Shown here: positions 34,152-50,122 of the stretch, one piece after another
Layout: each line of letters opens with the position of its first letter
Numbering within the stretch: position 1 is the stretch's first letter
Assembly (NCBI GenBank): GCA_963825525.1
Contig: CAWGTN010000003.1
Coordinates: 64,001 to 128,000, forward strand
Source: an uncultured Chloroflexia bacterium
Lineage (GTDB): Bacteria; Chloroflexota; Limnocylindria; QHBO01
DNA length: 64,000 nucleotides
Direction: 5' to 3'
Program-made: the position numbers and the translations under genes
The notes under the pieces: model-generated
What the model saw: only the letters and a program-made list of their open reading frames with translations
Database searches by the model: none
What the model was told of the DNA's origin: nothing

Positions 34152-35797
34152 CTACTCCGGAACGCGGATCGGCTGGCTCGGCGCTGGGTCCGTCGTGGCC
34201 GCGGGCCGCCGGAAAAGCTCGAGCTCGGGGACCAGCAGGATCACGATCGCCGCTGCACCTGCGGCGCCCGCCACGGCGAGCCACATCGCAGTCGCGATGG
34301 CCTGGTGGATGGCATCCACGATCTGTCCGATGAGTGGCTCGACGGTCGGCCGCGCCGCGGCCGGGACGCTCGAGAGGATCTGCTGTCCGAGGTCCACGCC
34401 GACGCCGGTCAGGTTGGCGTCGGCAGCGGCGCCGCCGGACGCGAAGCGATCTACGATCGGCTGCGGAACGCCGCCCGCCGCCAGCTGGCGCGGGATCTCG
34501 TTGGCCAGCGAGGTACCGAAGATCGTGCCGGCCAGTGCGAGGCCGACGGATCCGCCGACCTGCCGGAAGAAGGTCAGCGCGCTGGTTGCGGTTCCGAGCA
34601 TTCGCGGTGCGACCGCGCTCTGGACCACGATCGTGAAGACGGTGAAGGACGGGCCGATGCCGAGCCCGGCGATGAACATCCAGAGCCAGACGGTGGTGAT
34701 GGGCGTATCGGATCGGATGCCCGTCATCAGGAACAGCCCCACCGTGCCGACCGCCATGGCCCCGGCCGTCAACCACTTGTAGCGCCCGGTGCGGGCCACG
34801 ATGAAGCCGGAGGCGATCGAGCTGCCGATGACGCCGGCGATGAGCGGCAGCATCTGATAGCCGGACTCGGTCGCGCTCGAGCCCAGCACGAACTGGAACC
34901 AGCGGGGGATGAAGATGACGGCGCCGAAGAATCCGAACGTGATGAGGAACGTCGCGATGATCGAGGCGGTGACGGTTCGGTTGCGGAACAGGCTGAGTGG
35001 CAGGATCGGCTCAGCGGCGCGCGATTCGATCCATACGAAGAGCCCACCGAGCAGGGCACCGATGAGCATGAGGCCGCCGACCTGCGGGTCTGCCCATTCA
35101 CCGGTCTGCTTGTTCGTCAGGCCGAGGAGGAACGGGATGAGGGCTGCCGCGAACACCGAGGCACCGAGGTAGTCGATGGACCGAACGGCTTCGGGATGAC
35201 GAACGGGCGGCAGGAGGCGCCACAGGACCGCGAGCGCCACGATGCCGACCGGGAGGTTGACGAGGAAGACCCAATGCCAGCTGATCGTGTCGGTGAGGAA
35301 GCCGCCGAGCGCGGGGCCGAGGATCGAGGCGATGGCAAAGACGGCACCGAACAGACCCTGGTACTTCCCACGCTCGCGCGGGCTGAAGAGGTCGCCGATG
35401 ACGGCGAGGGCGATCGGGAAGATGGCACCCGCGCCAGTCCCTGGATGCCACGGAAGGCGATGAGCTGGACGATCGACTGGGACAGTCCGGCAAGGAGCGA
35501 CCCGACCAGGAACAGGCTGACGCCGAACATGATCATGGGCCTGCGGCCGAACTGGTCGGAGAGCTTGCCGTAGATAGGCCCGGTCACCGTTGCGGCGAGG
35601 AGGTAGATCGTGACGACCCACACGTAGAGCTCATTGCCGGAGAGATCGGTGACGATGCGCGGCAACGCGGTCCCGACAATGGTCTGGTCGAGCGCGCTGA
35701 GGAAGATGGTGAGAAGGACGGCGCCAAGGATCTCCATCCTGGCGCGCTGGGTGACGTGAACGGGTGCCTGGTCGGGTGCGGGTGATGCGCTGGTCAT
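34152..35797 (-). CDS. DHA2 (EmrB/QacA-like) MFS efflux pump, frameshift near 35435
   Basis: LDQTIVGTALPRI; GKLSDQFGRR; WHWVFLVNLPVG; one G missing at GIQGLG. Confidence 0.85.
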
Positions 35798-36265
35798 GCG
35801 GTTGCTTCCTCGGATGACGCTGATCGCGCGCGCCGCGGCGTTGAGATCCCTGACCGACGCGGCCAGGCGTTCCTGTTGGGTCGCGTGAGCGACTCGATGA
35901 GCCGAGCGATGCGGTCGCGCCGGCTCTGCTCCATTCTCGGATGAGCTGGCGGCCCTGCTCGGTGAGGGTGACGAACACGACGCGCCGATCGACGGTGTCG
36001 TGCGTTCGCTCGACGATGCCGCGCTCGGCGAGCCTGCCGATGATCCCGGTCGCGTTGGGGAGCGCCACGTCCAGGCGTTCGGCGATGCGACTCATCGGCA
36101 CTGCTCCTCGATCTCGAGGAGTGCGAGCACGCCGAAGCCGACCATGGAGAGGCCGTGCTCCTGGCAGCGAGCGGCCCACGCACGGCGATGCTGGGCCAGG
36201 AGCGGAACGAGCGCGTCGATGATTTCGGCCGCCCGCGATAGGGTGGCGCGCGAGGTTCGAGTCAT
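35794..36265 (-). CDS. MarR-family regulator, three to four frameshifts
   Basis: Pieced across frames: GLSMVGFGVLALLE/GAVPMSRIAERLDVALPNATGIIGRLAERGIVERTHDTVDRRVVFVTLTEQG. Confidence 0.75.
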
Positions 36266-36338: not shown

Positions 36339-36425
36339 CGTGGACGCCGTGTGGATAGCTTCGGAATCCGACCGAAAGTTCGGGGATAAGTGGGCTTGCG
36401 CAGCGCCGGCCCGCGACCCGATACT
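36339..36425 (+). promoter_or_regulatory. Three DnaA-box-like motifs plus sigma70 promoter (copy 1)
   Basis: CGTGGACGC 36339, TGTGGATAG 36350, CGGGGATAA 36381; TTGCGC 36396, 18 bp, GATACT 36420. Confidence 0.6.
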
Positions 36426-36431
36426 GAGGTC

Positions 36432-36570
36432 GTCCCGAAGGGGCAAGCGACCGGATCACAAGATTTCGATCATGAGTTCCGGCAGCGGGTTTGGAGGCTT
36501 CGGCCAAAGATCCTGACGGCAGCGGTGGCTTCGGTCACCGAGGTCGGACGCCTGTTCCTTCGGGACATTT
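36432..36570 (+). ncRNA. Structured RNA of unrecognised family, copy 1 (three UUCG hairpins)
   Basis: 5' gtcccgaaggggcaagcg pairs with 3' cgcctgttccttcgggac (17 of 18 pairs including G-U); homolog at 49243. Confidence 0.7.
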
Positions 36571-36590
36571 CGCATGCCCGCGGAGGATCG

Positions 36591-37352
36591 ATGAGCGTGA
36601 CACCGGACGTCGGGCCCGGCGCCCGCGTCCACGACATTCGCGTCGCGGATGACGCCGAGGCCTTCCTGGTCGAGCCCGAAGAGGGCGGACGCGGGCCAGC
36701 GGTGCTCTTCCTCCACTGGTTCGACACCGAAGCGACCGATGGAAACCGCACGCAGTTCCTGGACGAGGCTGCGCACCTTGCGCGCGACCGCGGCGTCGTC
36801 TCCATCCTGCCGCAGGGTCGCTTCCCATGGGCCGGGGATCCTTCCGACGCAGCCAGCGACATCGAGCGCATCGGCGCGGAAGTCGCGGCCCATCGGGCGG
36901 CCGTGGATCTCCTCAGCGCCCGTGACGATGTCGATCCATCGCGCATCGGCCTTGTCGGGCACGATTTCGGGGCCATGCACGGCGTGCTGCTGGCGGCCGA
37001 CGACACGCGCATCTCGGCCATGGTCATCATCGCCGCCACGCCCCGCTGGGGGGATTGGTTCCTTCCGTTCTGGGCGATCGATGGCGATCGGCACGACTAC
37101 CTCCGCGCGCTGGCTCCGGTTGACCCGATCTCGCGGATCGCCGACGTGGCGCCCCGGCCGATCTACCTGCAGTTCGCCCGCAACGACTTCTTCATTGCCG
37201 CCATGACCGGGCTGGAGCTGCACCGTGCCGCCGCCGAGCCCAAGGAGATGCGCGCGTACGACGCCGACCATGGGATGCGCGTGAGCGAAGCGCGCGACGA
37301 CAGGGTCGCGTTCTTCGACCGCACGATCCTCTCGGAGCGCCCGACCGGCTGA
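36591..37352 (+). CDS. Alpha/beta hydrolase (DLH/peptidase S9-like fold)
   Basis: GPAVLFLHW; DVDPSRIGLVGHDFG; YDADH; GGAGG RBS. Confidence 0.8.
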   Translation: MSVTPDVGPGARVHDIRVADDAEAFLVEPEEGGRGPAVLFLHWFDTEATDGNRTQFLDEAAHLARDRGVVSILPQGRFPWAGDPSDAASDIERIGAEVAAHRAAVDLLSARDDVDPSRIGLVGHDFGAMHGVLLAADDTRISAMVIIAATPRWGDWFLPFWAIDGDRHDYLRALAPVDPISRIADVAPRPIYLQFARNDFFIAAMTGLELHRAAAEPKEMRAYDADHGMRVSEARDDRVAFFDRTILSERPTG

Positions 37353-37451
37353 GTGCCGGCTTCAGGGGTTGCGCCCCGCGGTATCCTCAGCGGGCCGTCA
37401 TGCCCTTCGGCACCTCAGGGGGTTCGCGATACGTTGGCCGGAGGTGCGCAC

Positions 37452-37625
37452 GTGGAATTGGCAACCGGGCGCGACATGCTCGTCATCGCTCTGCTCGTGG
37501 CGGCGGTCCTGAGCACGATGTGGATTCTGTCCGCGACGCGCCGGCATCCCGCCGAAATCGGCCGCGCCGAGGACGCCCGTCGGACCCCTGAGGCGCGAAG
37601 GGACCAGACGCCTCGAGTGCGATGA
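37452..37625 (+). CDS. 57-aa single-TM small protein
   Basis: GGAGG RBS before GTG; hydrophobic MLVIALLVAAVLSTMWILS. Confidence 0.55.
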   Translation: MELATGRDMLVIALLVAAVLSTMWILSATRRHPAEIGRAEDARRTPEARRDQTPRVR

Positions 37626-37635
37626 CGCTGCCACC

Positions 37636-38358
37636 TCACGTGTCGGTCGGGTAGTTCCAGCGGCCCACCTGTGAGGCGAGCGTGACCGGGTCGAGAATCA
37701 CGATCGATCCGGCCGACGTCGTGACGATGCCCTCGCTTCGGAGTTCGCGAAGCACGCGGGCCACGACTTCTCTCACGGTGCCGACGCCGTCCGCGAGCTG
37801 CTGCTGCGTGACAGGCACCGTGAGACGCTGAGGCTCATCGGTGGGATGGGCCAGGTCCAGCAGGTGGCCCGCGACGCGCTCCCGCATGGTGCCGAAAGCA
37901 TGGGCGGCCAGGCTTGCGTACGAGTCCTCCAGCCGCTGGCTCAGAGCGTGGACGACCTGCGTCGCGGCGCTCGCGTCGGTCTCGATGATCTCGCGCAGAT
38001 GTCGGATGTTGAACTCCACGACCGTGCAGTCCGTTACGGCCGAAATGCCAAGCGGTGCCCGGTCGCCGACCAGGGGAAACACGCTGCCGATCAGCTCACC
38101 CGGACGAGCGTATCGAACGGTCAGCATCCGACCGTCCCCGGCACCGATGTACGCTCGCGCGACGCCAGACTCGACGACGCCGGCCCGCGTCCACTCGGCG
38201 CGCGGCGGGAAGATGGCCGCCCCGGCGCCGACACGCGTGGTGGTCGCGCTGTCGAGGATCTGTTGGCGGAGCGATTCGCTCAGACCCGGAAGGAAGCCTG
38301 CGCCGATGAGGGGCGCGTCGCTCGTCTCGTCCGTGGCATCCGCCTCCGCTTGGTGCAC
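37636..38358 (-). CDS. Crp/Fnr-family regulator
   Basis: cNMP-binding barrel (VVESGVAR..PGELIG); HTH VTQQQLADGVGTVREVVARVL; start chosen at GTG 38358. Confidence 0.9.
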   Translation of the reverse strand: MHQAEADATDETSDAPLIGAGFLPGLSESLRQQILDSATTTRVGAGAAIFPPRAEWTRAGVVESGVARAYIGAGDGRMLTVRYARPGELIGSVFPLVGDRAPLGISAVTDCTVVEFNIRHLREIIETDASAATQVVHALSQRLEDSYASLAAHAFGTMRERVAGHLLDLAHPTDEPQRLTVPVTQQQLADGVGTVREVVARVLRELRSEGIVTTSAGSIVILDPVTLASQVGRWNYPTDT

Positions 38359-38378
38359 TCTCGTCGCCGTCGCGGAAG

Positions 38379-38394
38379 CGTGACCTACGTCACG
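38379..38394. promoter_or_regulatory. CRP/GlxR-type binding site
   Basis: CGTGA-CCTACG-TCACG, matching GTGA-N6-TCAC, between crp and the divergent secreted-protein operon. Confidence 0.7.
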
Positions 38395-38516
38395 GACTAC
38401 CGTCGCGGGCACGATCCGATCGGTCGATGGTAGTCGGGCGGACGATCGGGTGTCATGCACACATTCCCACGCATTTGACGCCCACGTCATTCAATCTCTC
38501 GACGGAGTTCTTGATC

Positions 38517-38906
38517 ATGAAGCGCATCCTGTTCGTCGCGCTTGCCGGCCTCTTCACCTTCGGCGGTGTCTACGGCCTCGCGGCAAGCCTCAACCTCACC
38601 TCGGACGGGCTCGGTGCTGCGACGCAGGTCGTCGCAGGCTGCCAGGCCGGGACCCTCACTGCGACCTATACCTCGTCCTACTCGTCGTCGACTCCGGGCT
38701 ACACCGTCCCGACGGTCAACGTGACCGGCCTCGCGGCGTCGTGCTACAGCAAGGCATACCGGATCACCCTGACCGGCGCCGGCAACGCATCACTCGGGGA
38801 AGCGACCGGTACCACGCCGGCCAGCGGCACGACCTTCGCGGCGACATTCACGCCAGCGATCAGCGCGACCTCGATCACGGGCATCTCGGTCGTCATCAGC
38901 GGCTGA
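38517..38906 (+). CDS. Secreted Ser/Thr-rich pilin-like protein (putative major fibre subunit)
   Basis: MKRILF signal peptide, AASLNLTSDGLGAA, two Cys, C-terminal beta strand ISVVISG. Confidence 0.75.
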   Translation: MKRILFVALAGLFTFGGVYGLAASLNLTSDGLGAATQVVAGCQAGTLTATYTSSYSSSTPGYTVPTVNVTGLAASCYSKAYRITLTGAGNASLGEATGTTPASGTTFAATFTPAISATSITGISVVISG

Positions 38907-38913
38907 CCTCGAT

Positions 38914-38952
38914 CCCCGGGTCGCCGTCCGAGTCATCGGCGGCGGCCCTGGG
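38914..38952 (+). other. Intercistronic hairpin after the first subunit gene
   Basis: cccgggtcgccgtccga-gtca-tcggcggcggccctggg. Confidence 0.5.
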
Positions 38953-38976
38953 TGATCCGCAGCAAGAGACGTGCGC

Positions 38977-39349
38977 ATGAGTCCCTGGCGATCCGCCGCG
39001 ATCACCCTGCTGGCAACGATCGCCGGGGCCAGCGTTGGCGCCGCCGCGTCCCTTGCCCTCTCGGCCGGGAGCCTCGGTTTCGCAACCGCCAGCGTGCCGC
39101 AGGTGCACGAATGCGGGATTGACGGTCACGCCGATCCTCACCGTGAGCACGGTGACGAGCGTCACCGTGAGCACGTTGCCGCCGGCATGCGGAGGAGCAA
39201 CCATGGCGGTGACCGTCGATGACGGCACGACGACCGGCAGCGGCTCCGTCGTCATTCCGGGTGGCGGAGGGTCGGTGAGCGTGCCGATTACCGGGACCGC
39301 CGCCCTGCTGGCCTCGGTCCGGATCGATCTCGTGATCCTGGGACCGTGA
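38977..39349 (+). CDS. Second pilin-like paralog, frameshift near 39100
   Basis: AASLALSAGSLGFATASVP/RCTNAG...VTVSTLPPACGG...IDLVILGP; same Cys spacing as gene 38517. Confidence 0.7.
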
Positions 39350-40080
39350 GCCGACCCGTCGTTCGTCATCTCTCGAGTGTCGTGGCGATCCTCACGGCCG
39401 TGGCGCTCGGTGGTTCGTGGGGCCCGGCCAACGCCGCCAGCCTGTCGTTCAGCTCGCAGCTGCTCACGCCATATCGCACCTGCGTCCTCAGCGGGACGCC
39501 GGCAACGACGACGGTCGTCGCTGATGCGGAGGTCAGGCAGGCAACCGCCGGGACCAACTATGGCACCGCGACCACGCTGGTCGTCACCTCGAGCGGGACC
39601 GCCAACCGCCGGATCTACCTGCGGTTCGACCTCGCCGCCTGCGTTCCCGCCATCCCCGTCCACGGCGACTGTCCGGCTCGCGACGCTCCGGCTGTATGCC
39701 AGCGCCCTGCCGGCCGCCTGCCGCACACTCGATGTGTTTCGCCTCACCACCGCCTGGACGGAGGCGGCGATCACCTGGACCAATCAACCGTCGGGAACGG
39801 TGCTCAACACGCCCGCCGCTTGCCACCCGCTCGGACTCATTCGATGTCGGCACTCCGGTCGGCTGCCTCAACCGAACGGCGGGGGCCTACGTCAACGGGG
39901 TGGACCTCACCGCGGACGTGGCCGGCTTCGTGTCCGGGGCGTACCACCAATCGCGGGTGGATGATCCGTGACGATGTCGAGGGCTCGGCGACGGCTCGCA
40001 CCGTCACCTTCTCGGCCAAGAACCTGGGAACGCCCGCCCAGGCTCCGCAGCTGATCGTCACCTACGTCGTGGTGCCATGA
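39346..40080 (+). CDS. Secreted DNRLRE-like domain protein (putative tip or adhesin), three compensating frameshifts
   Basis: AASLSFSSQLL; ADAEVRQ..TNYG; RIYLRFDL; ATLRLY; WTEAAITWTNQP; NRGWMIR; PQLIVTY. Confidence 0.7.
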   Translation: MSRPVVRHLSSVVAILTAVALGGSWGPANAASLSFSSQLLTPYRTCVLSGTPATTTVVADAEVRQATAGTNYGTATTLVVTSSGTANRRIYLRFDLAACVPAIPVHGDCPARDAPAVCQRPAGRLPHTRCVSPHHRLDGGGDHLDQSTVGNGAQHARRLPPARTHSMSALRSAASTERRGPTSTGWTSPRTWPASCPGRTTNRGWMIRDDVEGSATARTVTFSAKNLGTPAQAPQLIVTYVVVP

Positions 40081-40638
40081 GCCTTCGTCCCTCGAGCATC
40101 TTCGGCACGATCGTGCTCGTCGTCCTGTTCGGTGCGTGGTTCGGCCTGTTCCGTCCCGTCAGCCTGGGCGGGCCGGCGACCTGGGTGGTCATCCGCGGGA
40201 GCTCGATGCAACCGACCTACGACACCGGCGATCTCGTGGTCATGCACGCGTCGGACGCGTACGCGTCAGGAGACGTCGTCGCGTACCGCGTTCCGGAAGG
40301 CCAGATCGGAGAGGGACACGTCGTTGTGCACCGGCTGGCAGGGGGCAACAACGGGGCGTGGGATGTCCTGGGCGACAACAACGACTCACTCGACCCGTGG
40401 CACCCGTCTAACGCACGACATCCTGGGCAAACCATGGATCACGGTCCCCGGGGCTGGACGGGTGGTGGCGTGGCTCCATCAGCCGGCGGTCCTGGCGGCT
40501 CTGGCATCGGCGATCGTCGTTTCGCTGCTCGTGGGATCGGAGACACCGCGCGCTGTTCCGGATCGCCGCCGCTCCACCATCACCTACGCCTGGTCGAAGG
40601 GGTCTAGACCTGCTCCATCGGAACAGCCGATGCGCTGA
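40077..40638 (+). CDS. sipW: SipW/ER-type signal peptidase I, frameshift near 40410
   Basis: IRGSSMQPT (Ser), VVVHR (His), GDNNDSLDPW, then ILGKPWITVPGAG and a TM segment in another frame. Confidence 0.8.
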
Positions 40639-41281
40639 CGCCGAGGCCGACCGGGCAGGCGACGCCGGTCGAGTGGTCCGGGCAGTACCCGCTCGGGTTC
40701 TTGGCGAGGTACTGCTGGTGGTAGTCCTCCGCGAAGTAGAACTCGGGCGCCGGCTGGATCTGGGTCGCGATGCGCCCGAAGCCGGCCTTGGTCAGCTCCG
40801 CCTGGTACATCTCGCGAGACGATTCGGCGGCGGCCCGCTGCGCGTCGTTCTGCGTGAAGATCACCGATCGATACTGCGTGCCGACGTCGTTGCCCTGCCG
40901 CATCTCCTGGGTCGGATCATGCTCCTCCCAGAAGGCCTTGAGGATCTCGGGATATGAGACCCGGGACGGATCGAAGACGACGCGGACCACCTCGGCGTGC
41001 CCGGTGCGGCTGCTGCAGACTTCCTCGTAGGTCGGGTTCGGCGTGTGCCCGCCCTGGTAGCCGACCGCGGTAACCAGGACGCCGGGCAGCTGCCAAAAGG
41101 TCTTCTCGACGCCCCAGAAGCACCCGGCGCCGAACTCGGCGATCTCGGACCCGGACGGATAGGGGCCCTTCAATGACGCGTCGTTGACGAAATGGCGCTC
41201 CGCGGTCGGAAGCGCGGCGGGGCGACCTGGGAGTGCGTCGCCCGGATCGACCATCTTGGTCTTATTGCCGAAGAGGAACAT
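40604..41281 (-). CDS. msrA: Peptide methionine sulfoxide reductase A
   Basis: GAGCFWGVE; NPTYEEVC; GNDVGTQYRS; AEDYHQQYL. Confidence 0.97.
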   Translation of the reverse strand: MFLFGNKTKMVDPGDALPGRPAALPTAERHFVNDASLKGPYPSGSEIAEFGAGCFWGVEKTFWQLPGVLVTAVGYQGGHTPNPTYEEVCSSRTGHAEVVRVVFDPSRVSYPEILKAFWEEHDPTQEMRQGNDVGTQYRSVIFTQNDAQRAAAESSREMYQAELTKAGFGRIATQIQPAPEFYFAEDYHQQYLAKNPSGYCPDHSTGVACPVGLGVSASAVPMEQV

Positions 41282-41408
41282 GAATGAAGTCTACGCCCGA
41301 TTCATGACGGTTGCGTGAAGGTGAACAGGCGCGGCGGGCGGTCGCGGCGTCGCCGACCGGGGCGGGTCAGGAGGTGCGACTTCGGCACGAGCCCGATACC
41401 ATCCATCC

Positions 41409-41795
41409 ATGACGCATGACCCAGCCGACTATCCCGAGGTCCGCCTGGCCGAGCTCGTGATGCCGAACCGAACGAACCATCACGGGACCCTGTTCGGCGG
41501 ACATGCGCTCGGGTTGATGGATCATGCCGGCTGGGTGGCAGCCACCCGATGTGCGCGTCGGACCATGGTCACGGTCGCGTCCGATCGGGTGGAGTTCAAG
41601 GTCCCGGTCCGCGCCGGACAGCTGGTGGAGCTGGTGGCGCGGGTCACGGCGGTGGGGCGCACGTCGGTGACGGTCGGCGTCGACATGTTCTCGGAGGACG
41701 TGGCGACCGGCGAGCGGCGACTCGCGACCTCGGGGAGCTTCGTGTTCGTTGCCATCGATGACGCGGGGGCTCCGACGCCGATTGCCGGCCGCTGA
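41409..41795 (+). CDS. Hotdog acyl-CoA thioesterase
   Basis: MPNRTNHHGTLFGG; VGRTSVTV; FVFVAIDDAG. Confidence 0.9.
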   Translation: MTHDPADYPEVRLAELVMPNRTNHHGTLFGGHALGLMDHAGWVAATRCARRTMVTVASDRVEFKVPVRAGQLVELVARVTAVGRTSVTVGVDMFSEDVATGERRLATSGSFVFVAIDDAGAPTPIAGR

Positions 41796-41844
41796 CGCGG
41801 CGCCTCCCGGGTTGAACGTTTCGCAGGGTCGCCGCGTATCCATG

Positions 41845-41964
41845 TCACGAGGCGGGTGGGTGCGATGCGGACCCGACGCACGGCCGGCACGGATCGCGAC
41901 ACGGAGCGTCGCAGTGGCCTGAGCGATCCGCGACCACCGGTCGTCGACGGGCCCGGGACGCCAT
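41845..41964 (-). CDS. Possible 39-aa Cys-rich peptide
   Basis: GAGGAGG RBS; MASRARRRPVVADRSGHCDAPCRDPCRPCVGSASHPPAS. Confidence 0.3.
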   Translation of the reverse strand: MASRARRRPVVADRSGHCDAPCRDPCRPCVGSASHPPAS

Positions 41965-42040
41965 CGCAACCCTCCTCGTCCGTTCGCCTGTTCATGCGCG
42001 GCGCGACCCAGGGGCGTGGGTCGCGCCGCACCTCGCCCGG

Positions 42041-42649
42041 TCAGCTCTCGAGGGAGCCGTGGGACGCGGTGTCGCCGACCACCAGCACGATCGCGCGGGC
42101 CAGGCTCGCGCCCTCGTTTCGCAGCTGGTGGGGCTGGTGGTCACCGAAGCCGATCGAGTCGCCCGCGGCAAGTCGATGCTCACCGAACCCGACCCGGAAC
42201 GTGAGCTCTCCCTCCAGCACGAGAAACAGGTCGCGCCCCGAGTGCCTGAGGAACTCCTCGCCGCTGGTGGCGCCGGGTTCGTATCGGATCTCCATGAACC
42301 GAGTTCCAGGCTCGTCGCGCGGCAGCAGGTTCTCCCAGGTCACGCCCCCGTTCAGCTGGATTCGCTGCCGATCGGCCGAACGAACCACCCAGGCGGTTTC
42401 ACCGAGCACGGCCTGGATATGCGACGGCACGTCGCCGAAGAACGACGCGACGGGCACGTCCAGGGCCGCCGCCAGCAGGTAGAGGGTGTCCACCGACGGC
42501 GTGACCTTGCCGTTCTCTACCTGGCTGAGAAGGCTGGGACTGGCGCCGATGGCTCGCGCCAGCTGACGCAAGGACAGCTCCCTCGAGGCGCGCAGCGCCC
42601 GCAACCGTGCGCCGATCTCCGTGGCATTCGGTGCCCGCCGGTCGGTCAT
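42041..42649 (-). CDS. XRE-cupin regulator (PuuR-like)
   Basis: LSLRQLARAIGASPSLLSQVENGKVTPS plus a cupin domain. Confidence 0.9.
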   Translation of the reverse strand: MTDRRAPNATEIGARLRALRASRELSLRQLARAIGASPSLLSQVENGKVTPSVDTLYLLAAALDVPVASFFGDVPSHIQAVLGETAWVVRSADRQRIQLNGGVTWENLLPRDEPGTRFMEIRYEPGATSGEEFLRHSGRDLFLVLEGELTFRVGFGEHRLAAGDSIGFGDHQPHQLRNEGASLARAIVLVVGDTASHGSLES

Positions 42650-42662
42650 CGGACAGGCGGCC

Positions 42663-42721
42663 GTTCAGTAGCAATGAACTTACTGCCCGAATGCCCCGTA
42701 TTGTGTTCAGCCTGACTGATG
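42663..42721. promoter_or_regulatory. Candidate operator sites for the XRE-cupin regulator
   Basis: GTTCA-N7-TGAAC (42663-79) and degenerate GTTCA-N7-TGATG (42705-21) in the divergent intergenic region. Confidence 0.5.
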
Positions 42722-42847
42722 AAATGGGCAGGCAATGGCACTACGCCGGTCGGGCGAGTCATCGGCAGGGAGTCCTGGTCCGTCTCGTCTTCGCCGATCA
42801 CTCGCTCGGCCGCGCGCCATCGGGGAATCATGGAGGAACGCGCTGTC

Positions 42848-44824
42848 ATGCAACCACGCACGTGGCGATACGCCGCGATGGTCACGACGCTCGGCTTGGT
42901 GCTCGCCGCCTGCGGGGGAGCGGGCACGAATTCGTCGGGTGGGGCCACAGGATCCGATTCGCCCTCCACTGGTCCGGGGTCCTCAGGGGATCCTGGCGGT
43001 GAATCCGGCTATCGCGATGCTATCACCTGGGTCCTGGACGGCCAGCCCGGGAAGATCAGCAACGGCGCCGATGATGATCCCACCGCCGACCTGGCGGCGT
43101 TCATCTACGACGGGCTCTATCAGTACAACGACAAGATCGAGCCGGTCCCGAACCTCGCGACCTGCGAGCCAGACGCGGATGAGTTGGTGTGGACCTGCTC
43201 CCTTGGGGAAGCCACGTTCCACAACGGCGACCCGATGACGGCCGAGGACGTGAAGTACAGCTACGACCTCGCCATCAGCGAGAACTGCACGTACAACCCC
43301 TCGATCTGCCTCGCCGGGTTCGTGGAGTCGGTCGACGTCATCGACGACCAGACGATCGCCTTCACCCTGCCGCAGGCGTACTCACCGTTCCTCACGCTGA
43401 TCCTGCCAACCCTCGGCATCGAGTCGAAGGCCGTGATCGAGGATGCGTATGCGGAGTTCACCGGCGCTGCCGGATCGATTGACCCGACCGACGTCCGCGA
43501 TGCGGCGGCGGCGATCGACGAGCCGGCGGGGGCCGACGAGCCTGATGCTGCGGGCTGCGAGGCGGCCCTGGCGGATGCCGAGGCTCTGCTCACGCAGGCT
43601 GGCGTGGAGCTGCCGCGACGCGAGGACCACACCTTCGACGGTGCCTTCGATCCATGCAGCTACGGGACGACGCTGTCCACCGACCTGCTGGGGGTTGCCA
43701 CCTCGCTCGAGGCCGATGGCCTGGATGCCGTGGCTGCGGTCTACAGCCTCCTGCCGTTCAACCGCGCGCCGGTCGGCACCGGCCCGTACAAGCTCGTCGA
43801 GTTCGAGGTCGGCCAGAGCGTCGTTCTCGAGGCGCACGAGGACTACCACGACGGGACGCCCGCCACGCCACGGATGAACTTCGTGATCATCACCGACCTG
43901 GTCGCCGCCGCCAGCGCGCTGGCCGCCGGGCAGGTCGACTACGTCGAGGAGATGACGCCCGACGCGTACGAGGCGGTTCGCAATGCCTCGAACGTGAAGG
44001 TCGCCGAGTACCCCGGATTCCTGCACCTCGAGTTGCAGTTCAACGTGCGTGAGGGACGGATCTTCGGCGACATCAACCTGCGCAAGGCGCTGCAGCTGTG
44101 CATCGACAAGGCGGGGCTGGTGAGTGCGGCAACCAATGGGACCGCGCTGCCGACGGAGTCGGAGACGCCTCCGGCATCGTGGGCCTTCAACCCGGACGTG
44201 CAGGGCGTCGAGCGCGACGTCGACGCAGCCAAGGCGCTCATCGAGGAGTCCGGCTGGACCATGGGCGACGACGACTTCTACCAGCAGGACGGTCGTCGGC
44301 TGGAGGCCACCGTCCTCGTCAGGGCCGGCCAGAGCGACCGGATCAACTTCATGCAGCTCTTCGCGGAGCAGGTCCGAGAGTGCGGCGTGGACATCACGGT
44401 CAATCCCGCCGACTTCCAGACCGTGCTGCTGCCGGCCCTCGATCGGGCATGGGCCGCGGATGGGTTCGACGCCTACTTCGGCGGATGGTCCGCCGCGGTC
44501 GACCCCGACCCGTTCAGCCTCTGGCACTGCAGCCAGGTCAGCACGGAAGAGCGACCGGAGCAGTTCAACTACATCGGCTACTGCAACGAGGAGGTCGACG
44601 AGATCATCGAGGCAGGCCTGGCCACGAGTGACCAGGCGGAGCGCAAGGAGCTGTACTTCCGCTTCCAGGAGATCCTTGCCGAGGAGCAACCGTACCTGTT
44701 CGCCTACGCGCCCCTCGTGCGGGACGGGATGGACGTCGGTCTCACGTTCACCGACGGCGAGCTGAACCTCGAGTCGCCGACCTGGCTGTGGCAGCGCCAC
44801 AAGGTCGTGATCCCGGAGTCCTGA
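42848..44824 (+). CDS. Family 5 (Dpp/Opp) substrate-binding lipoprotein
   Basis: Lipobox LAAC; FHNGDPMTAEDVKYS; PVGTGPYK. Confidence 0.9.
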   Translation: MQPRTWRYAAMVTTLGLVLAACGGAGTNSSGGATGSDSPSTGPGSSGDPGGESGYRDAITWVLDGQPGKISNGADDDPTADLAAFIYDGLYQYNDKIEPVPNLATCEPDADELVWTCSLGEATFHNGDPMTAEDVKYSYDLAISENCTYNPSICLAGFVESVDVIDDQTIAFTLPQAYSPFLTLILPTLGIESKAVIEDAYAEFTGAAGSIDPTDVRDAAAAIDEPAGADEPDAAGCEAALADAEALLTQAGVELPRREDHTFDGAFDPCSYGTTLSTDLLGVATSLEADGLDAVAAVYSLLPFNRAPVGTGPYKLVEFEVGQSVVLEAHEDYHDGTPATPRMNFVIITDLVAAASALAAGQVDYVEEMTPDAYEAVRNASNVKVAEYPGFLHLELQFNVREGRIFGDINLRKALQLCIDKAGLVSAATNGTALPTESETPPASWAFNPDVQGVERDVDAAKALIEESGWTMGDDDFYQQDGRRLEATVLVRAGQSDRINFMQLFAEQVRECGVDITVNPADFQTVLLPALDRAWAADGFDAYFGGWSAAVDPDPFSLWHCSQVSTEERPEQFNYIGYCNEEVDEIIEAGLATSDQAERKELYFRFQEILAEEQPYLFAYAPLVRDGMDVGLTFTDGELNLESPTWLWQRHKVVIPES

Positions 44825-44841
44825 GACCGGGAAGACCCGAT

Positions 44842-44876
44842 GCCGATGGCGTCCGCCGAGCGCGGGCGCCATCGGC
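44842..44876 (+). other. Hairpin after the SBP gene
   Basis: gccgatggcgtccgc-cgagc-gcgggcgccatcggc. Confidence 0.5.
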
Positions 44877-44906
44877 CATCCCATCCGCTGAACGAGAGGC
44901 TTGGAC

Positions 44907-45869
44907 ATGACGGGCTACATCGCGAGACGCTTGCTGCAGGCCGTCCCCATCCTGTTCGGCGTCGCGATCATCAGCTTCGGGCTGGTCCACCTGGCGCCCG
45001 GTGACCCCATCGATCGATTCCGGACTCCGACCGTCCGTCCCGACCAGCTCGAGGGCCTCATCCGGCTCTACGGCCTCGACCGGCCGATCCACGAGCAGTT
45101 CTGGAGCTGGATCAGCACGTACGTCCAGATCTGGCGACCGGAGGCGTGGGGCTATTCGTTCCTCGACGGCCAGCCGGTCATCTACAAGATCGCCGAGCGC
45201 CTTCCGGCGACCCTGCTGCTGGGTGGGACCGCCCTGCTCGTCACGGTGCTGGTCGCGATCCCGCTCGGGATTCTCGCCGCCGTGCGCCAGTACAGCTGGG
45301 CCGATCGGCTCATCAGCAGCCTTGCCACCGTCGGCTACGCCATCCCGTCCTTCCTGCTCGGGCTCTACCTGCTCTTCTTCGGCGGCGTGGTCTTCGGGTG
45401 GTTCCCGCTGTTCGGCATGGAGAGCTTCGGCAACGAGGGCGATCCGCTGGACATCGCGTGGCACCTCGTCCTGCCCGTCGCGAGCCTCGCGATCCAGCAG
45501 ATCGCCGGCTGGTCGCGCTACGTTCGTGCGGCGATGCTCGAGGTCCTGCACCAGGACTACGTCCGGACGGCGCACGCCAAGGGCCTGCCCGCACGCCGCG
45601 TGACCTTCAAGCACGCCCTCCGCAACGCGATCATCCCGGTGATCACGCTGCTGGGCCTGACGATCCCGACGCTGCTCGGCGGCGCGGCGATCACCGAGGC
45701 GATCTTCAGCTGGCCCGGAGTCGGCCAGATGGGCGTCGACGCGGTCGCCAACCGTGACTACCCGGTGGTCCTGGCCTTCGTGATGATCGGTGGCATCGGG
45801 GTGGTGATCGGCAACCTGCTGGCGGACATCTTCTACGCGGTCGCCGATCCGCGCATCAAGCTCGGCTGA
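44907..45869 (+). CDS. Peptide ABC permease, DppB/OppB-like
   Basis: YIARRLLQAVP; DYVRTAHAKGL; KHALRNA; DPRIK. Confidence 0.93.
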   Translation: MTGYIARRLLQAVPILFGVAIISFGLVHLAPGDPIDRFRTPTVRPDQLEGLIRLYGLDRPIHEQFWSWISTYVQIWRPEAWGYSFLDGQPVIYKIAERLPATLLLGGTALLVTVLVAIPLGILAAVRQYSWADRLISSLATVGYAIPSFLLGLYLLFFGGVVFGWFPLFGMESFGNEGDPLDIAWHLVLPVASLAIQQIAGWSRYVRAAMLEVLHQDYVRTAHAKGLPARRVTFKHALRNAIIPVITLLGLTIPTLLGGAAITEAIFSWPGVGQMGVDAVANRDYPVVLAFVMIGGIGVVIGNLLADIFYAVADPRIKLG

Positions 45870-45881
45870 AGGAGCGATCTC

Positions 45882-46826
45882 ATGACCAATGTCGATGTTC
45901 TCGTGCCCCGTCCGCAGGATCATGACGTCGACGCCGACCTGCTCGACCAATCACCGGTGCGCACCTACTGGCAGCTGGCGCGGGCGCGATTCGTCCGGAA
46001 CCGGCTGGCGCTCATCGGCCTGGTCGCCCTCGCCGTCCTGGTTGTCGGCTCGCTCGTGCTGCCGGCCGTGACCGGCGACGCGTGGCGCGCCGCGGTGTTG
46101 GCGAAGGTCAACGCACCGCCCGAGATCGGCACCGACGCGGCGGGCGAGTTCCGATTCGCGCCGCTCGGCTACAGCGACATCGGCCAGAACATCCTCGCGC
46201 GCCTGGCCAAGGCGACCGGCACCAGCCTGTCGATCGGAAGCGCTGCCGTGCTCATCATCGTGGCGCTCGGCATCGGCGTCGGGTCAGTGGCGGGCTACGT
46301 GGGCGGCTGGGTCGACAACCTGCTCATGAGATTCGTCGACATCGTGCTCAGCCTGCCGGCCCTGTTCATCATCCTGGCCCTGGTCAGCTTCTGGGGCGGC
46401 GGAAGCGTGTGGGTCATCATCATCGCCATCGGCATCACCAGCTGGACGCTCGCCGCCCGACTGGTGCGTGCCGAGTTCCTCCGCCTGCGAGAGGTCGACT
46501 ACGTCGCCGCCGCTCGAGCCCTGGGTGCCAGCCCGCTGCGCATCATGCTCCGGCACATGCTGCCGCCGGCCATGGCCCCGATCATCGTGGCCGCAACTCT
46601 GGGTGTGGCGGACTCGGTGGTCATCGAGGCGGCCCTCAGCTTCCTGGGCTTCGGCATCAGCCAGCCGGAGGCCAGCCTGGGCAACATGCTGACCGAGGCC
46701 CAGACCTACTTCTTCCGGAACCCATGGCTCGTGGCGTGGCCGGGGATCGTGCTCATCACGATCGTCATGAGCGCCTCGTTCCTGGGCGACGGGCTGCGCG
46801 ACGCGCTCGACCCGCGCCAGCGCTGA
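45882..46826 (+). CDS. Peptide ABC permease, DppC/OppC-like
   Basis: DYVAAARALGA; EAALSFLGFG; GDGLRDALDPR. Confidence 0.93.
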   Translation: MTNVDVLVPRPQDHDVDADLLDQSPVRTYWQLARARFVRNRLALIGLVALAVLVVGSLVLPAVTGDAWRAAVLAKVNAPPEIGTDAAGEFRFAPLGYSDIGQNILARLAKATGTSLSIGSAAVLIIVALGIGVGSVAGYVGGWVDNLLMRFVDIVLSLPALFIILALVSFWGGGSVWVIIIAIGITSWTLAARLVRAEFLRLREVDYVAAARALGASPLRIMLRHMLPPAMAPIIVAATLGVADSVVIEAALSFLGFGISQPEASLGNMLTEAQTYFFRNPWLVAWPGIVLITIVMSASFLGDGLRDALDPRQR

Positions 46827-46841
46827 CGGAGGAAGACAAAC

Positions 46842-46872
46842 GCCCCGATCGGGCTCGGAGTCCGATCGGGGC
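46842..46872. terminator. Hairpin between convergent genes
   Basis: gccccgatcgggct-cgg-agtccgatcggggc; T-rich tail on the minus strand. Confidence 0.6.
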
Positions 46873-46984
46873 ATCTGCCTGGAGGGTATTGGGTTGCCAG
46901 GATGATCCCTCTTCCCGGGCCAGACGACCAGCGACGTTGGACTCACGCGGCGCCTACGTCAAGCGACGTAGCCGATGCGTTCGG

Positions 46985-48103
46985 TCAGGTTCGGAGGCGG
47001 TCTCCCATGAGCGCTCGGAGGCGCTCGTGGTCCAGGGCATGGGCCGTGATGCCGTCACGCCCGACCATCGTCTCGGCCGCCAGCAGCGCGTTGGTGATCG
47101 ATTCCTCGGTCGCCTCGACGGTGGCCTCGAGGAGCGGGTTGATCTGCTCGTCGACGACCATGCGCAGGGAGACGGGAGCTCTCGGATCGTCCTCCCCGGC
47201 CCGGTGCGACAGCCCGCGGTTGCCGGTCGAGAAGGCCAGGAACAGATCGCCCGAGCCATGCGAGGCGTAGCTCCCCATGCGCGCGACGCCCATGCCGACC
47301 CGCTGCGCCAGGCGCGCGCACTGGTGGGGGAGGAGCGGCGCGTCGGTTGCCACGATGCCGATGATCGAGCCTCCCTCCGGACCGATGCGGTTGCCGAGCC
47401 GTTCGACCGCGTCCCAGGGCGACGCGACCTCGTCACGTGGGATCGCGGCACCCACCGGGACGCCGTCGATGCGCAGCAACCCGCGTTCTCCGTAGTTGGC
47501 CTGCACCAGGACGCCGACCGTCCACGCACCCGCCCTCCGCGATGCGGTTCCGATCCCACCCTTGAACTCGTGGCAGATCATGCCGGTGCCGCCGCCCACG
47601 TTGCCCTCGGCCACCACGCCGCCGCTCGCCGAGGCAAGCGCCGTCTCGACGTGCTCGGGCCGGACGTGGAAGCCGTTGATGTCGTTGAGCCCGCCGTCGT
47701 ACGTCTCGCCGACCACCGGCAGCGACCAGAACGTCTCGTTCGGGCCGTGAGCGGCAGCCGCGGCCGCGATCAGAGCGTCGTGAACGACCCCGACGCTGTG
47801 CGTGTTCGTGATCCCGATGGCTCCGGCCAGCATCCCCGACTCGCGGATCCACTCGAGCCCGGTCAGCTCTCCGTTGCCGTTGAGCCGATGGGCGCCGGCG
47901 AAGACCGGCTCGGTCCAGATATCGCCCTCGTGCGGCACCACCACCGTGACCCCGGTTCGAACCGGCCCGTGGCCAGGCGTCAGCGGGCCATCGCCCGAGA
48001 TGAGCGTCGTGTGGCCGACCCGGACGCCGGCCACATCGGTGATCGCATTGAGTTCGCCCGGCGGCATCCGGCCGATGCGGATGCCAAGGTCACGTGCGCG
48101 CAT
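46985..48103 (-). CDS. dmpA: DmpA/P1 (S58) aminopeptidase
   Basis: NAITDVAGVRVGH; EGNVGGGTGM; GGSIIG autoprocessing site; GSGDLFLAFST. Confidence 0.9.
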   Translation of the reverse strand: MRARDLGIRIGRMPPGELNAITDVAGVRVGHTTLISGDGPLTPGHGPVRTGVTVVVPHEGDIWTEPVFAGAHRLNGNGELTGLEWIRESGMLAGAIGITNTHSVGVVHDALIAAAAAAHGPNETFWSLPVVGETYDGGLNDINGFHVRPEHVETALASASGGVVAEGNVGGGTGMICHEFKGGIGTASRRAGAWTVGVLVQANYGERGLLRIDGVPVGAAIPRDEVASPWDAVERLGNRIGPEGGSIIGIVATDAPLLPHQCARLAQRVGMGVARMGSYASHGSGDLFLAFSTGNRGLSHRAGEDDPRAPVSLRMVVDEQINPLLEATVEATEESITNALLAAETMVGRDGITAHALDHERLRALMGDRLRT

Positions 48104-48134
48104 CGGCGCAGTCTACCGGGGCGGCGCGGCCGCC

Positions 48135-49076
48135 TCAGGCGCGGCTGGGGTCCGCGTTCGACGGGTTCGGGTGCGCGGACGACGGCTGGCGTGGGGCTCC
48201 TCGGTGCTCGACGATCCACAGGCCCACCAGCACGATGATCCCGCCCAGCAGGGTGAACGGCCCAAGCTCCTCGTCGAGCAACGCCACCGAGGACAGCACC
48301 CCGATGATCGGCACCAGGAGCGCGAACGCGCTTGCGCGTGCCGCGCCGATGCGGGCGACGCCCATGTTGAACAGGACGAACGCGGCGACCGTGCCGAAGA
48401 CCGCCAGGTAGCCGATGCCGGCGAGCGCTCCGGGCGGCGCGGCCCAGACCCTGGCCAGCCCTCCCTCCGCCAGCGCCGGGGGAACCAGGACCACGGTGCC
48501 GAGTGCCGTCCCGTACAGCGTGGTGCTGACCGCGTCGAAGCGGCCATGCGCGATCCTCGCCAGCACCGAGTACACGCCCCAGAAGGCGGCACCGGTGATG
48601 AACAGCACGTCGCCGAGCAGCCGTCGGTCGTCGGTTGCGCCGGTGGGCGTGACCACCAGCAGGAGGCCGACCGCCGCGACGCCGAGGCCGATGATCCCGC
48701 GCGTGCCGAGGCGCTCGCGCAGGAAGAGGCCGGCCAGGATCAGCGTGAAGACGGGCGCGAGTCCCGGCACGATGATCGCGCCGTCGGACGCGGGTGCCAG
48801 CGTGAGGCCGGTGAGGAAGAGCCAGTTGTAGCCGGCGACCGCCGTCAGGGCCAGGCCCAGGATCAACGGAACGTCGCGCCAGTGGATCGGCGAGAGGGGA
48901 CGGTTCGAGAGCCGGGCCCAGCCGAACAGCAGGAGGGAAGCGACGCCGAACCGAATCGCCGCGATGGTGAACGGCGGCGCGGCGTCGACGGCCACCGCGG
49001 CGGCCACCCAGGTGCCCCCGAACGCCACGGCCATGCCGATGAGCATCAGGTACGCGGTGCGGTCGGATGGTGTCAT
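48135..49076 (-). CDS. DMT/EamA transporter
   Basis: Two EamA repeats, about ten TMs; FLRERLG; GAARAS. Confidence 0.9.
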   Translation of the reverse strand: MTPSDRTAYLMLIGMAVAFGGTWVAAAVAVDAAPPFTIAAIRFGVASLLLFGWARLSNRPLSPIHWRDVPLILGLALTAVAGYNWLFLTGLTLAPASDGAIIVPGLAPVFTLILAGLFLRERLGTRGIIGLGVAAVGLLLVVTPTGATDDRRLLGDVLFITGAAFWGVYSVLARIAHGRFDAVSTTLYGTALGTVVLVPPALAEGGLARVWAAPPGALAGIGYLAVFGTVAAFVLFNMGVARIGAARASAFALLVPIIGVLSSVALLDEELGPFTLLGGIIVLVGLWIVEHRGAPRQPSSAHPNPSNADPSRA

Positions 49077-49150
49077 GAGGCCTTCACCTTGTCATCGGGC
49101 GGCGTGTCGTTGCATCGGTCAAACGTCGCAGGGCCGCCAGCCGTGAGAAA

Positions 49151-49236
49151 CGTGGATGGGGTGTGGATAGCCCGCGCCTGACGTCATGGATTCGGGGATA
49201 AGGGGGATTGTTTCGTCAGCGGAGGGCAGAGATACT
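49151..49236 (+). promoter_or_regulatory. Three DnaA-box-like motifs plus sigma70 promoter (copy 2)
   Basis: CGTGGATGG 49151, TGTGGATAG 49162, CGGGGATAA 49193; TTGTTT 49208, 17 bp, GATACT 49231. Confidence 0.6.
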
Positions 49237-49242
49237 TTGGTC

Positions 49243-49353
49243 GTCCCGAAGGGGCAAGCGACACCGGATCACACGGCTTCGGTCATGGGTTTCGGTGCCG
49301 GCAACGGAGGCTTCGGCCGCCGAGGTCGGGCGCCTGTTCCTCCGGGGCATTTT
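49243..49353 (+). ncRNA. Structured RNA of unrecognised family, copy 2 (two UUCG hairpins)
   Basis: Same 5' 18-mer as copy 1, pairing with cgcctgttcctccggggc; flanked by minus-strand genes. Confidence 0.7.
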
Positions 49354-49362
49354 CGTGCCCGG

Positions 49363-49920
49363 TCAGCCAACCTCGACCCGCACCGCCTCGATCTCGTCGT
49401 CCGACGCAAGGCGATGCACCGCGCTCAGGCCCCCCGAATCGAGCGATCGGAGGCTGTCGCTCAGCATGCGATGCTGGCGTCGCAGGGCCGCCGGCGGCGG
49501 ACGTGGTGCCGCTCGGGTGGCATTCCGCTCCAGGGCGGTCGCCAGCGACACGTCAAGGACGATCCCGACCACAGGACGGCGGTGCCGCCGCGCGATGGCG
49601 ATCAGCTGCTCGCGCGCCCACGCCTCCACGTTCGTTGCGTCGACCACGGTCAGACGTCCGCGACGCAACCGCATGGCGAGCAACCGGTGCAGCAGGTCGA
49701 ACGCGTCGTCCGTCGCCTCCTGGGCCGTCGGGTCGTCGGTGATCATGGCCCGCAGGTTGTCCGATGACAGAACCTGGCTCGTGCGGAAATGGCGAGTGGC
49801 GAACGTGGTCTTGCCACTCGCCGAAATGCCGATGAGGATCACGAGCGCATCGGCAGGCAGTGCGATGAGCCGAGAAACAGACCGGCCGCCGTTGGTGTCG
49901 GCGGCCGGTGGCGTGGTCAT
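49363..49920 (-). CDS. AAA_33 P-loop kinase (resembles the Pnkp kinase domain)
   Basis: LIGISASGKTTFA; LSSDNLR; RLRRGRLTVVDATN. Confidence 0.85.
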   Translation of the reverse strand: MTTPPAADTNGGRSVSRLIALPADALVILIGISASGKTTFATRHFRTSQVLSSDNLRAMITDDPTAQEATDDAFDLLHRLLAMRLRRGRLTVVDATNVEAWAREQLIAIARRHRRPVVGIVLDVSLATALERNATRAAPRPPPAALRRQHRMLSDSLRSLDSGGLSAVHRLASDDEIEAVRVEVG

Positions 49921-49930
49921 GAGTCCCGTG

Positions 49931-50122
49931 TCAGCCGTGGGCGTCGCAGTCCGGGCACATCTCGGAGTCGGGAATCGGCGCCTTGGGCTGGCCGATGGCA
50001 CGCGGCAGCGCGCGGCCGCAGATGGTCGAACCGGGCTCGCCGACGAGGTGAACCTTGCTGAAGTGGCGATCGGGCAGCCGCCACGTCACGTAGCGACGCT
50101 GGCGCGTGGGGGTCGAGGACAC
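49931..50122 (-). CDS. 63-aa putative zinc-binding protein
   Basis: GGAG RBS before GTG; KVHLVGEPGSTICG...MCPDC (His plus three Cys). Confidence 0.6.
   Translation of the reverse strand: MSSTPTRQRRYVTWRLPDRHFSKVHLVGEPGSTICGRALPRAIGQPKAPIPDSEMCPDCDAHG

Follow-up and report, generated by a model that had tools for sequence, protein, structure and literature searches.

A predicted family of small hairpin RNA genes behind DnaA-type box arrays in Candidatus Limnocylindria (Chloroflexota)

Small RNAs that occur as several paralogues under one regulator are well established in bacteria, with Qrr1-5 of Vibrio, LhrC1-5 of Listeria, and RsmX/Y/Z as prominent examples. A small number of protein-coding genes are known to be regulated by DnaA, and clusters of DnaA boxes outside the replication origin (oriC) also exist as the non-coding elements datA and DARS. 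According to the main text of a chromatin immunoprecipitation sequencing study in E. coli, in which the terms "sRNA" and "small RNA" are absent, the known targets of DnaA that it lists are protein-coding genes for nucleotide synthesis, replication, repair, and RNA metabolism (PMC11317965), and a study of Caulobacter crescentus describes CcnA as a cell-cycle noncoding RNA connected to a master regulator that governs both replication and the cell cycle (PMC8959179). The present analysis concerns a 64,000-nucleotide (nt) stretch of DNA from an uncultured Chloroflexota bacterium (assembly GCA_963825525.1, contig CAWGTN010000003.1, positions 64,001 to 128,000; hereafter the window), which holds two related elements on the + strand, namely copy 1 (36432-36566; 135 nt, three hairpins) and copy 2 (49243-49348; 106 nt, two hairpins). 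Comparison with related genomes indicates that these are separate genes for small folded RNAs, belonging to a lineage-specific paralogue family with about 4-8 genes per genome in the class Candidatus Limnocylindria, and we regard it as very probable that they are real small RNA genes.

Like Qrr1-5, LhrC1-5, and RsmX/Y/Z, the family comprises several paralogues per genome that share a promoter, upstream sites, and a conserved RNA segment; unlike them, it appears to use a sigma-70-type promoter with DnaA-box-like sites rather than sigma-54/LuxO or GacA sites, its RNAs are nearly all helix without an obvious single-stranded seed or repeated GGA motif, its hairpin number varies between paralogues, and a target scan gave no convincing target. 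With CcnA it shares a link, here predicted, between small RNA and a master regulator of replication, but it has 4-8 genes, DnaA-type boxes, and no sign of base-pairing targets. The upstream sites resemble those of DnaA-regulated E. coli promoters in being TTATCCACA-type 9-mers, with pairs separated by a 2-bp gap, located upstream of the promoter, and differ in the presence of a third box at -50 and in that two of the three boxes are often GGGGA; binding to the boxes is here a prediction from sequence. As in datA and DARS, about three DnaA-type boxes form each cluster and the clusters lie at several chromosomal sites away from the origin; unlike in those elements, the boxes point one way, are joined to a promoter in fixed register, and lead into an RNA on which selection acts in its own right.

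Five RNA genes were found in the genome of the window (G000) by a search for three boxes and a search based on the closing stem of the RNA (P1). Besides the two long paralogues of the window, there are three short ones outside it, at C2:1752446-1752511 (+; 66 nt, locus L038), C2:1064701-1064762 (-; 62 nt, locus L039), and C2:947014-947074 (+; 61 nt, locus L218), all with the same upstream cassette and closing stem and each kept as a distinct type throughout the family. The short form consists of P1 and one irregular hairpin with the tip GAGAU-NNC-AUCAA, a tip shared with hairpin A of long forms from other genera. At least three of the RNA genes share a contig with dnaA, 230-570 kb away from it. 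A first-pass annotation of the window had proposed the two elements as a stand-alone small RNA family. The proposal of such a family is supported by a promoter of its own, a fixed + strand, the lack of an Rfam match, and comparative data, and both elements hold up as real; the family is nevertheless larger than that pair, and the conserved unit starts in the promoter, about 95 nt before the RNA. The three short genes and this promoter with its three DnaA-box-like sites had been missed.

The upstream cassette is unusually sharply defined. The first 93 nt upstream align without gaps across 21 loci and display G[G/T]GGA boxes near -92, -81, and -50, TTGc at -36, TAnnnT at -12 to -7, nnGGTC, and the +1 G. 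For copy 1, box 1 is CGTGGACGC (36339-36347; -93 to -85, a position fixed family-wide), box 2 is TGTGGATAG (36350-36358; -82 to -74), which differs by one mismatch from the reverse complement of a DnaA box, and box 3 is CGGGGATAA (36381-36389; -51 to -43), adjoining the -35 element of the core promoter TTGCGC-18 nt-GATACT (36396-36425, with GATACT at 36420-36425). In copy 2, the family alignment places box 1, CGTGGATGG, at 49151-49159, box 2, again TGTGGATAG, at 49162-49170, and box 3, again CGGGGATAA, at 49193-49201, ahead of the core promoter TTGTTT-17 nt-GATACT (49208-49236, with GATACT at 49231-49236). The 9-mer CGGGGATAA occurs only three times in the whole genome, two of these being the promoters of copies 1 and 2. 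The cassette is common to all five G000 genes, with a TTGnnn -35 and a TAnnnT -10 element, and leads in each to the invariant stem and a U-rich tail. A search for GKGGA-N6-GKGGA-N25-27-GKGGA returned four matches in G000, each directly 5' of an RNA beginning GUCCCG, and none in the reversed-genome control. In the family of the window's genome (f1), the pattern was present in 61/61 genomes with 1-8 matches each (three control matches in all); in a third family of the class (f2), it was at background, with four matches in 3/41 genomes vs four in the control. This pattern was used in place of a loose single-box scan, which gave 992 matches and was uninformative.

Box 2 carries the clearest resemblance to a DnaA site, being the reverse complement of the DnaA box TTATCCACA, i.e., of the TGTGGATAA type. 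Among 115 distinct cassettes, it departs from TGTGGA[T/C/A]AA at no position in 47, at one in 67, and at two in a single cassette, so that 114/115 have at most one mismatch. Mean mismatches to the same motif rise from 0.60 (box 2) through 1.69 (box 3) to 2.60 (box 1), as against 4.3-6.0 at control positions, and one short type has near-perfect sequences at all three boxes of its promoters. A gap of 2 bp, fixed across genera, separates boxes 1 and 2, and DnaA of E. coli prefers box pairs 2-3 bp apart, according to the study cited above (PMC11317965). Cassette 9-mers, including GTGGATAAG and GTGGACAAG with the same flanking G, also fill the dnaA-dnaN gap of G000. That DnaA is the factor acting at the boxes is somewhat more likely than not, and it is the identification that we favor.

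Further DnaA-box-like sites were observed at other places in G000. The stretch of about 390 bp between dnaA and dnaN (L187 2518-2908; C2:1521199-1521589) contains at least seven GTGGA/TCCAC-like sites in both orientations and is probably oriC. A search for strict TTATCCACA clusters of at least three sites at up to one mismatch found none; a looser core then found this gap and ftsZ. About 110-130 nt upstream of ftsZ, whose FtsZ_C domain maps to C1:266889-267173, lie the DnaA-box 9-mers TGTGGATAA and TGTGGAAAA, 21 nt apart (C1:266098-266127; L231 about 710-739), and control of cell division by DnaA is suggested as well for this lineage. Inspection by eye also revealed TTGTCCACA-type boxes in opposite orientation at about C1 233225-233320, just upstream of an apparent tRNA gene.

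Both window elements open with GTCCCGAAGGGGCAAGCGAC, at 36432 and 49243, the first G being exactly the seventh base past GATACT, and their first 13-14 nt pair with their last 13-14 nt in a continuous helix (36432-36449 with 36549-36566 in copy 1, by folding). In both copies, P1 comprises 14 + 3 bp, two of them invariant G-U pairs, has a single A/C mismatch, and is followed by ATTT or ATTTT. Inside it, copy 1 carries hairpins A (36451-36482), B (36487-36513), and C (36517-36546), and copy 2 carries hairpins A (49262-49297) and C (49298-49329), all capped by UUCG. Folding energies of -69.7 kcal/mol for copy 1 (z -4.78) and -58.7 kcal/mol for copy 2 (z -3.58) were matched by 0/200 shuffles in either case. 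The first-pass annotation had described a start 7 nt after GATACT, an 18-bp closing stem with G-U pairs and ATTT (17-18 bp in the present analysis), three and two UUCG-capped hairpins with compensatory changes, and a modular hairpin number, and each of these descriptions agrees with the folding and the comparative alignments. Modularity arises by tandem copying of the last hairpin, the middle hairpin of copy 1 being a duplicate of its last.

Selection on the structure is indicated by several comparisons. In 17 genus-level three-hairpin sequences, double-sided changes occur at 7/50 pairs, compared with a shuffle mean of 2.9 and with 7 reached in 1/500 shuffles, a count that kinship among the sequences can inflate; 94.4% of cells in the same set pair, vs 30-50% when the partner column is slid. 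Hairpin C folds as a 10-13 bp hairpin in 19/19 distinct sequences, despite quite different stems, from 20 two-hairpin loci (copy 2 of the window, one further locus from its genus, and 18 from other genera); it was folded singly in these loci because the MAFFT and model-fitted alignments of the two-hairpin form (A5 and A6), which were left out of the pair counts, placed it inconsistently. Hairpins A to C change on both sides of their pairs, by the pair counts and the hairpin-C folds taken together. P1 is nearly invariant, and its variants keep pairing (A-U to G-U, or G-U to G-C): it is fully paired (100%) in 24 short forms, where a change from A-U to G-U is the sole variation, and its second pair differs between families, being U-A vs G-U or G-C. 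The + strand is fixed because the two invariant G-U pairs would turn into C/A mismatches if the opposite strand were read and because R1, a covariance model of the long form built from the 17 three-hairpin sequences, gives copy 2 a score of 100.7 bits on the + strand against 38.1 bits on the - strand (copy 1: 132.4 bits). The UUCG hairpins are the least conserved parts, whereas the closing stem and, in most members, the apical GAGAU-NNC-AUCAA hairpin are kept; the earlier suggestion of a sponge or scaffold of variable valency is weakened because the variable hairpins are precisely these least conserved parts. A pairing of the tail hairpin with the 3' strand of P1 was considered and dropped, since its covariation, judged by eye, was inconsistent.

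Among the genomes sampled, the family is confined to one class. Searches with R1 gave matches in 37/50 sampled f1 genomes and in 0/100 genomes of families f2-f5, all of Candidatus Limnocylindria, whereas R2, a model of the short form, gave matches in 50/50 f1 genomes, in 31/44 of the sister family f3 (one weak match each), and in 1/49, 0/6, and 0/1 of f2, f4, and f5, respectively; outside the class, R2 matched 0/136 genomes. Per f1 genome, R2 matches number 1-7, with 3-7 in 47 of 51 when G000 is included. An exact short-form pattern, which separates the three old paralogue types, was found in 91/101 f1 genomes and 44/45 high-quality ones, with no match for the backwards control, and two f3 matches that were inspected carry a compensated change in P1 together with the three boxes and the tip seen in f1. 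These tallies take in the unpublished genomes G006, G034, G116, G125, G151, G181, and G186, on which alone no claim rests, and rows from G034, G125, G116, and G181 are included in alignments A2, A3, A5, A6, and A7 and in models R1 and R2.

Among relatives, BLAST yielded strong matches within the same genus only, usually two per genome and 7-27 kb apart; a raw count of 61/61 genomes at E up to 1 carries no meaning, the genus-level matches alone being strong. Other genera mostly have a single long-form copy of 100-107 nt with two hairpins, which is syntenic with copy 2 as judged by tblastn with the window proteins. Across genera, the order at this locus is an EamA transporter, the RNA, sometimes an open reading frame (ORF) of about 300 aa resembling arrestin-N, a convergent kinase, and phosphofructokinase. 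Copy 1 is taken to be a genus-specific duplicate because its MarR and hydrolase neighbors occur within the genus only, and the copy 2 locus is, by this comparison of gene order, the ancestral one. Neighbor analysis relied on tblastn with the window proteins and tblastx of the flanks, six-frame ORF clustering being uninterpretable in DNA of 69% G+C. Within a genome, the long copies often have the same score and hairpin number (both three or both two) while differing from those of other genomes (e.g., G016, G025, G020, and G029), and gene conversion between long paralogues is suggested; in G000 they differ in hairpin number.

Taken together, these observations are best explained, in our judgment and with reasonable but far from complete confidence, by stand-alone, co-regulated small RNAs under a shared and probably DnaA-dependent promoter. 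In the proposed order of events, a same-oriented pair of 9-mers 2 bp apart (-93 to -74) and a third 9-mer by the -35 element (-51 to -43) would precede a sigma-70-type promoter, from which transcription would begin at the G of GUCCCG. The closing stem and U-rich tract would end the transcript, P1 probably doubling as terminator, and the RNAs would be released as hairpins or three-way junctions of 61-140 nt. A single factor at the boxes, most probably DnaA, would co-regulate all of the genes, and RNA level would thereby be tied to the state of replication initiation; because the boxes lie upstream of -35, activation fits better than repression. Less firmly, the RNAs may act in trans via a protein bound to the invariant helix at their base and the GA-flanked hairpin at their apex. 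The family, its structure, the promoter architecture, the distribution, and the synteny are observed, whereas we infer the transcript ends, the identity of the factor as DnaA, activation over repression, and this trans mode of protein binding.

The predicted 3' ends are consistent with free products. Rho-independent terminators have a G+C-rich stem with a U-tract directly after it, and P1, whose U-tract is interrupted, may act as one; the tail is ATTTCGCAT (36567-36575) in copy 1, a probable 3' end, and ATTTTCGTG (49349-49357) in copy 2, where a generic scan called a terminator-like site (49335-49349 plus TTTTCGTGCC). Over 111 cassettes the tail consensus is AUUUCGUUG, with at least four T within the first 8 nt in 86/111, the T frequency of the genome being 0.156.

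Several points weigh against the reading of stand-alone RNAs under DnaA. GGGGA frequently takes the place of GTGGA in boxes 1 and 3 (CGGGGATAA is box 3 in 70/115 cassettes), an exchange that alters positions normally important for DnaA, and it is possible that another factor recognizing G[G/T]GGAWAA is involved or that these sites are deliberately weak. The cassette is restricted to two families while DnaA is universal, the generic scan flagged neither RNA promoter and a terminator-like site at copy 2 only, the apical GAGAU-NNC-AUCAA motif kept by most members is lost in both window copies, transcript start, end, and expression itself are predictions from sequence logic, and no binding partner was identified in this analysis. 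In addition, copy 1 ends 25 nt before a same-strand gene for an alpha/beta (dienelactone-type) hydrolase (36591-37352, +; Abhydrolase_1 3.9e-6, DLH 2.2e-5) with a ribosome-binding site, GGAGGA, before its ATG, and the arrestin-like ORF starts 10-35 nt past the RNA in 7/12 other-genus long-form loci examined; some members may thus also act as leaders. Taken further, as a cis module in which the cassette supplies a shared promoter and a 5' leader or attenuator hairpin to the gene downstream, with no free RNA, this explanation could also draw on the same-strand tRNA-Pro(CGG) that follows after 45-75 nt in 2/8 loci of short type S2, yet we consider it unlikely. Copy 2 and its orthologues in several genera face a convergent gene, the stop codon of which (gene 49363-50001, -) is 15 nt from the end of copy 2; the first-pass annotation had argued from this gene that copy 2 is no cis leader, correctly, while overlooking the same-strand gene 25 nt 3' of copy 1. 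The flanks downstream of the three short types are unconserved between genera by tblastx, the downstream ORFs of S1 and S3 have no Pfam family match and may be shadow ORFs, a U-rich tract directly follows the stem, and the long-form RNA and promoter persist in several genera where the downstream ORF is lost or decayed. A same-strand downstream gene or gene class conserved across the loci, as expected of a riboswitch or cis leader, was not found, although copy 1 and some long-form loci have such a gene nearby. We conclude that the RNAs are primarily free products, with read-through into the following gene possible at some loci.

An explanation that dispenses with a functional RNA is that the unit is DNA, its three-box sites titrating or recycling DnaA like datA or DARS while the promoter modulates occupancy and the RNA is a short by-product. 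There are 12-24 well-placed boxes in fixed register per genome outside oriC, 5/23 strong TGTGGA[T/A/C]A[A/G] sites of G000 fall inside cassettes, and the RNA would stop almost at once after starting. Selection on the RNA, as seen in the compensatory changes of hairpins A to C, the pair-keeping changes of P1, and the apical motif maintained across three old paralogue types, speaks against this, as does the uniform orientation of the boxes, given that DARS needs opposed boxes; on balance, we rate it a little lower still than the leader. Far less plausible is a Y-RNA-like (YrlA-type) molecule working with Ro protein or an RNA-repair system. The resemblance is real in so far as a long end-to-end stem encloses a variable structured module, the 5' GUCCCGAAGG is loosely like the GGUCCGA of Y RNAs, and a gene for a kinase like that of Pnkp (polynucleotide kinase-phosphatase) is a conserved neighbor of the long form. 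Y RNA and YrlA, however, have a conserved basal helix with a bulged nucleotide bound by Ro, and P1 has no bulge; the short forms do not adjoin the kinase gene; TROVE (Ro, PF05731) had 0 matches in G000, which is 91.84% complete, with control matches in Deinococcus and Bacteroides; and no Rfam Y RNA or YrlA matched even at E up to 10, so that this identity is largely refuted. More generally, covariance-model searches of the 64-kb window gave 0 matches at the gathering thresholds of Rfam 15 and, with E up to 10, chance matches only (P26, 13.8 bits, threshold 36, E 2.3; mir-4523, 18.2 bits, threshold 96, E 3.3), in keeping with the initial impression that this is not a known RNA. The least credible of the alternatives is a miniature inverted-repeat transposable element (MITE) or another kind of mobile repeat, with terminal inverted repeats that merely look like a closing stem. 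Multiple copies, complementary ends, and several genus-level long-form matches at contig ends of draft genomes would suit it, but the copies are few and their number is stable, the loci of each paralogue type are orthologous and syntenic from genus to genus, a 95-nt promoter on one side only makes the conserved unit asymmetric, and the G-U pairs are strand-specific; a target-site duplication was not seen in the flanks of either copy that were read, no search for empty sites having been made. By these comparisons, the RNA family represents neither a MITE nor a Y RNA nor a riboswitch.

With regard to function, binding to a protein rather than pairing with mRNA is a tentative preference that falls somewhat short of an even chance. 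The RNAs are almost wholly helical, and a 13-nt apex is the only seed candidate; a genome scan for complements of two apex 13-mers at up to two mismatches returned, apart from the RNAs, only sites that were scattered and formed no pattern at gene starts. Pairing with or mimicry of rRNA found no support in a short-word BLAST of the five RNAs against the rRNA region of contig C1, which gave chance matches of 7-13 nt (lowest E 0.3 among the matches listed). A more speculative proposal, to which we assign a low probability, is that the hairpin RNAs are the output arm of a DnaA timing circuit, in which DnaA-ATP on the three-box cassettes would switch on the 4-8 genes and the RNAs would feed back on initiation or division by binding DnaA, one of its regulators, or the division machinery.

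The remaining neighbors are recorded here for completeness. Divergent from copy 1 is a gene for a MarR-family regulator (35631-36179, -; MarR 1.2e-9), toward which faces a near-consensus promoter, TTGACA-16-CATAAT (36300-36273, -), identified in the generic promoter scan; this promoter and that of copy 1 point away from each other. On the upstream side of copy 2, and divergent from it, is the EamA-family transporter gene (48135-49076, -; EamA 2.2e-43), and the convergent gene beyond copy 2 encodes a stand-alone kinase of 212 aa (AAA_33 6.2e-29) that remains convergent to the long-form RNA across genera. This kinase matches TIGR04075 (1.2e-49) at profile positions 3-167 of 851, with a score under the whole-protein cut-off; its resemblance to bacterial Pnkp is limited to the kinase domain, and neither a phosphatase nor a ligase part was seen. 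Its proximity is taken as synteny only because the short forms are not near it. The arrestin-N-like ORF (Arrestin_N 3.5e-9) is found at L064:585-1466 (-) and in the same place in six other genera, has decayed at two more loci, and does not occur in G000. The tRNA-Pro(CGG) genes by S2 lie at L039 1353-1428 (-) and L196 1609-1685 (+), and in a third locus the distance is 1.3 kb.

The family appears to be undescribed, and a small RNA family behind DnaA-type box arrays appears to be new. In the literature on DnaA boxes, small RNAs, and promoters, no DnaA-controlled small RNA family was present among the matches listed; the conserved 13-mers of the RNAs were found in no paper, though supplementary files could hold such sequences; and no literature naming both Limnocylindria and DnaA was found. 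The cassette is sharply defined, its register being fixed over about 95 nt in two bacterial families, and because the architecture is so well defined it is directly testable with purified DnaA and RNA polymerase in organisms that are themselves uncultured. The RNA family also provides a clean, lineage-specific marker for abundant soil and freshwater Chloroflexota and illustrates how an RNA may grow by tandem duplication of hairpins under a constant closing stem. Should the timing circuit prove true, it would constitute an RNA-based counterpart of control by datA, DARS, and Hda, in a lineage where ftsZ too has DnaA boxes. In broader terms, small RNA genes behind DnaA-type arrays would newly link the initiation of replication to RNA-based regulation.

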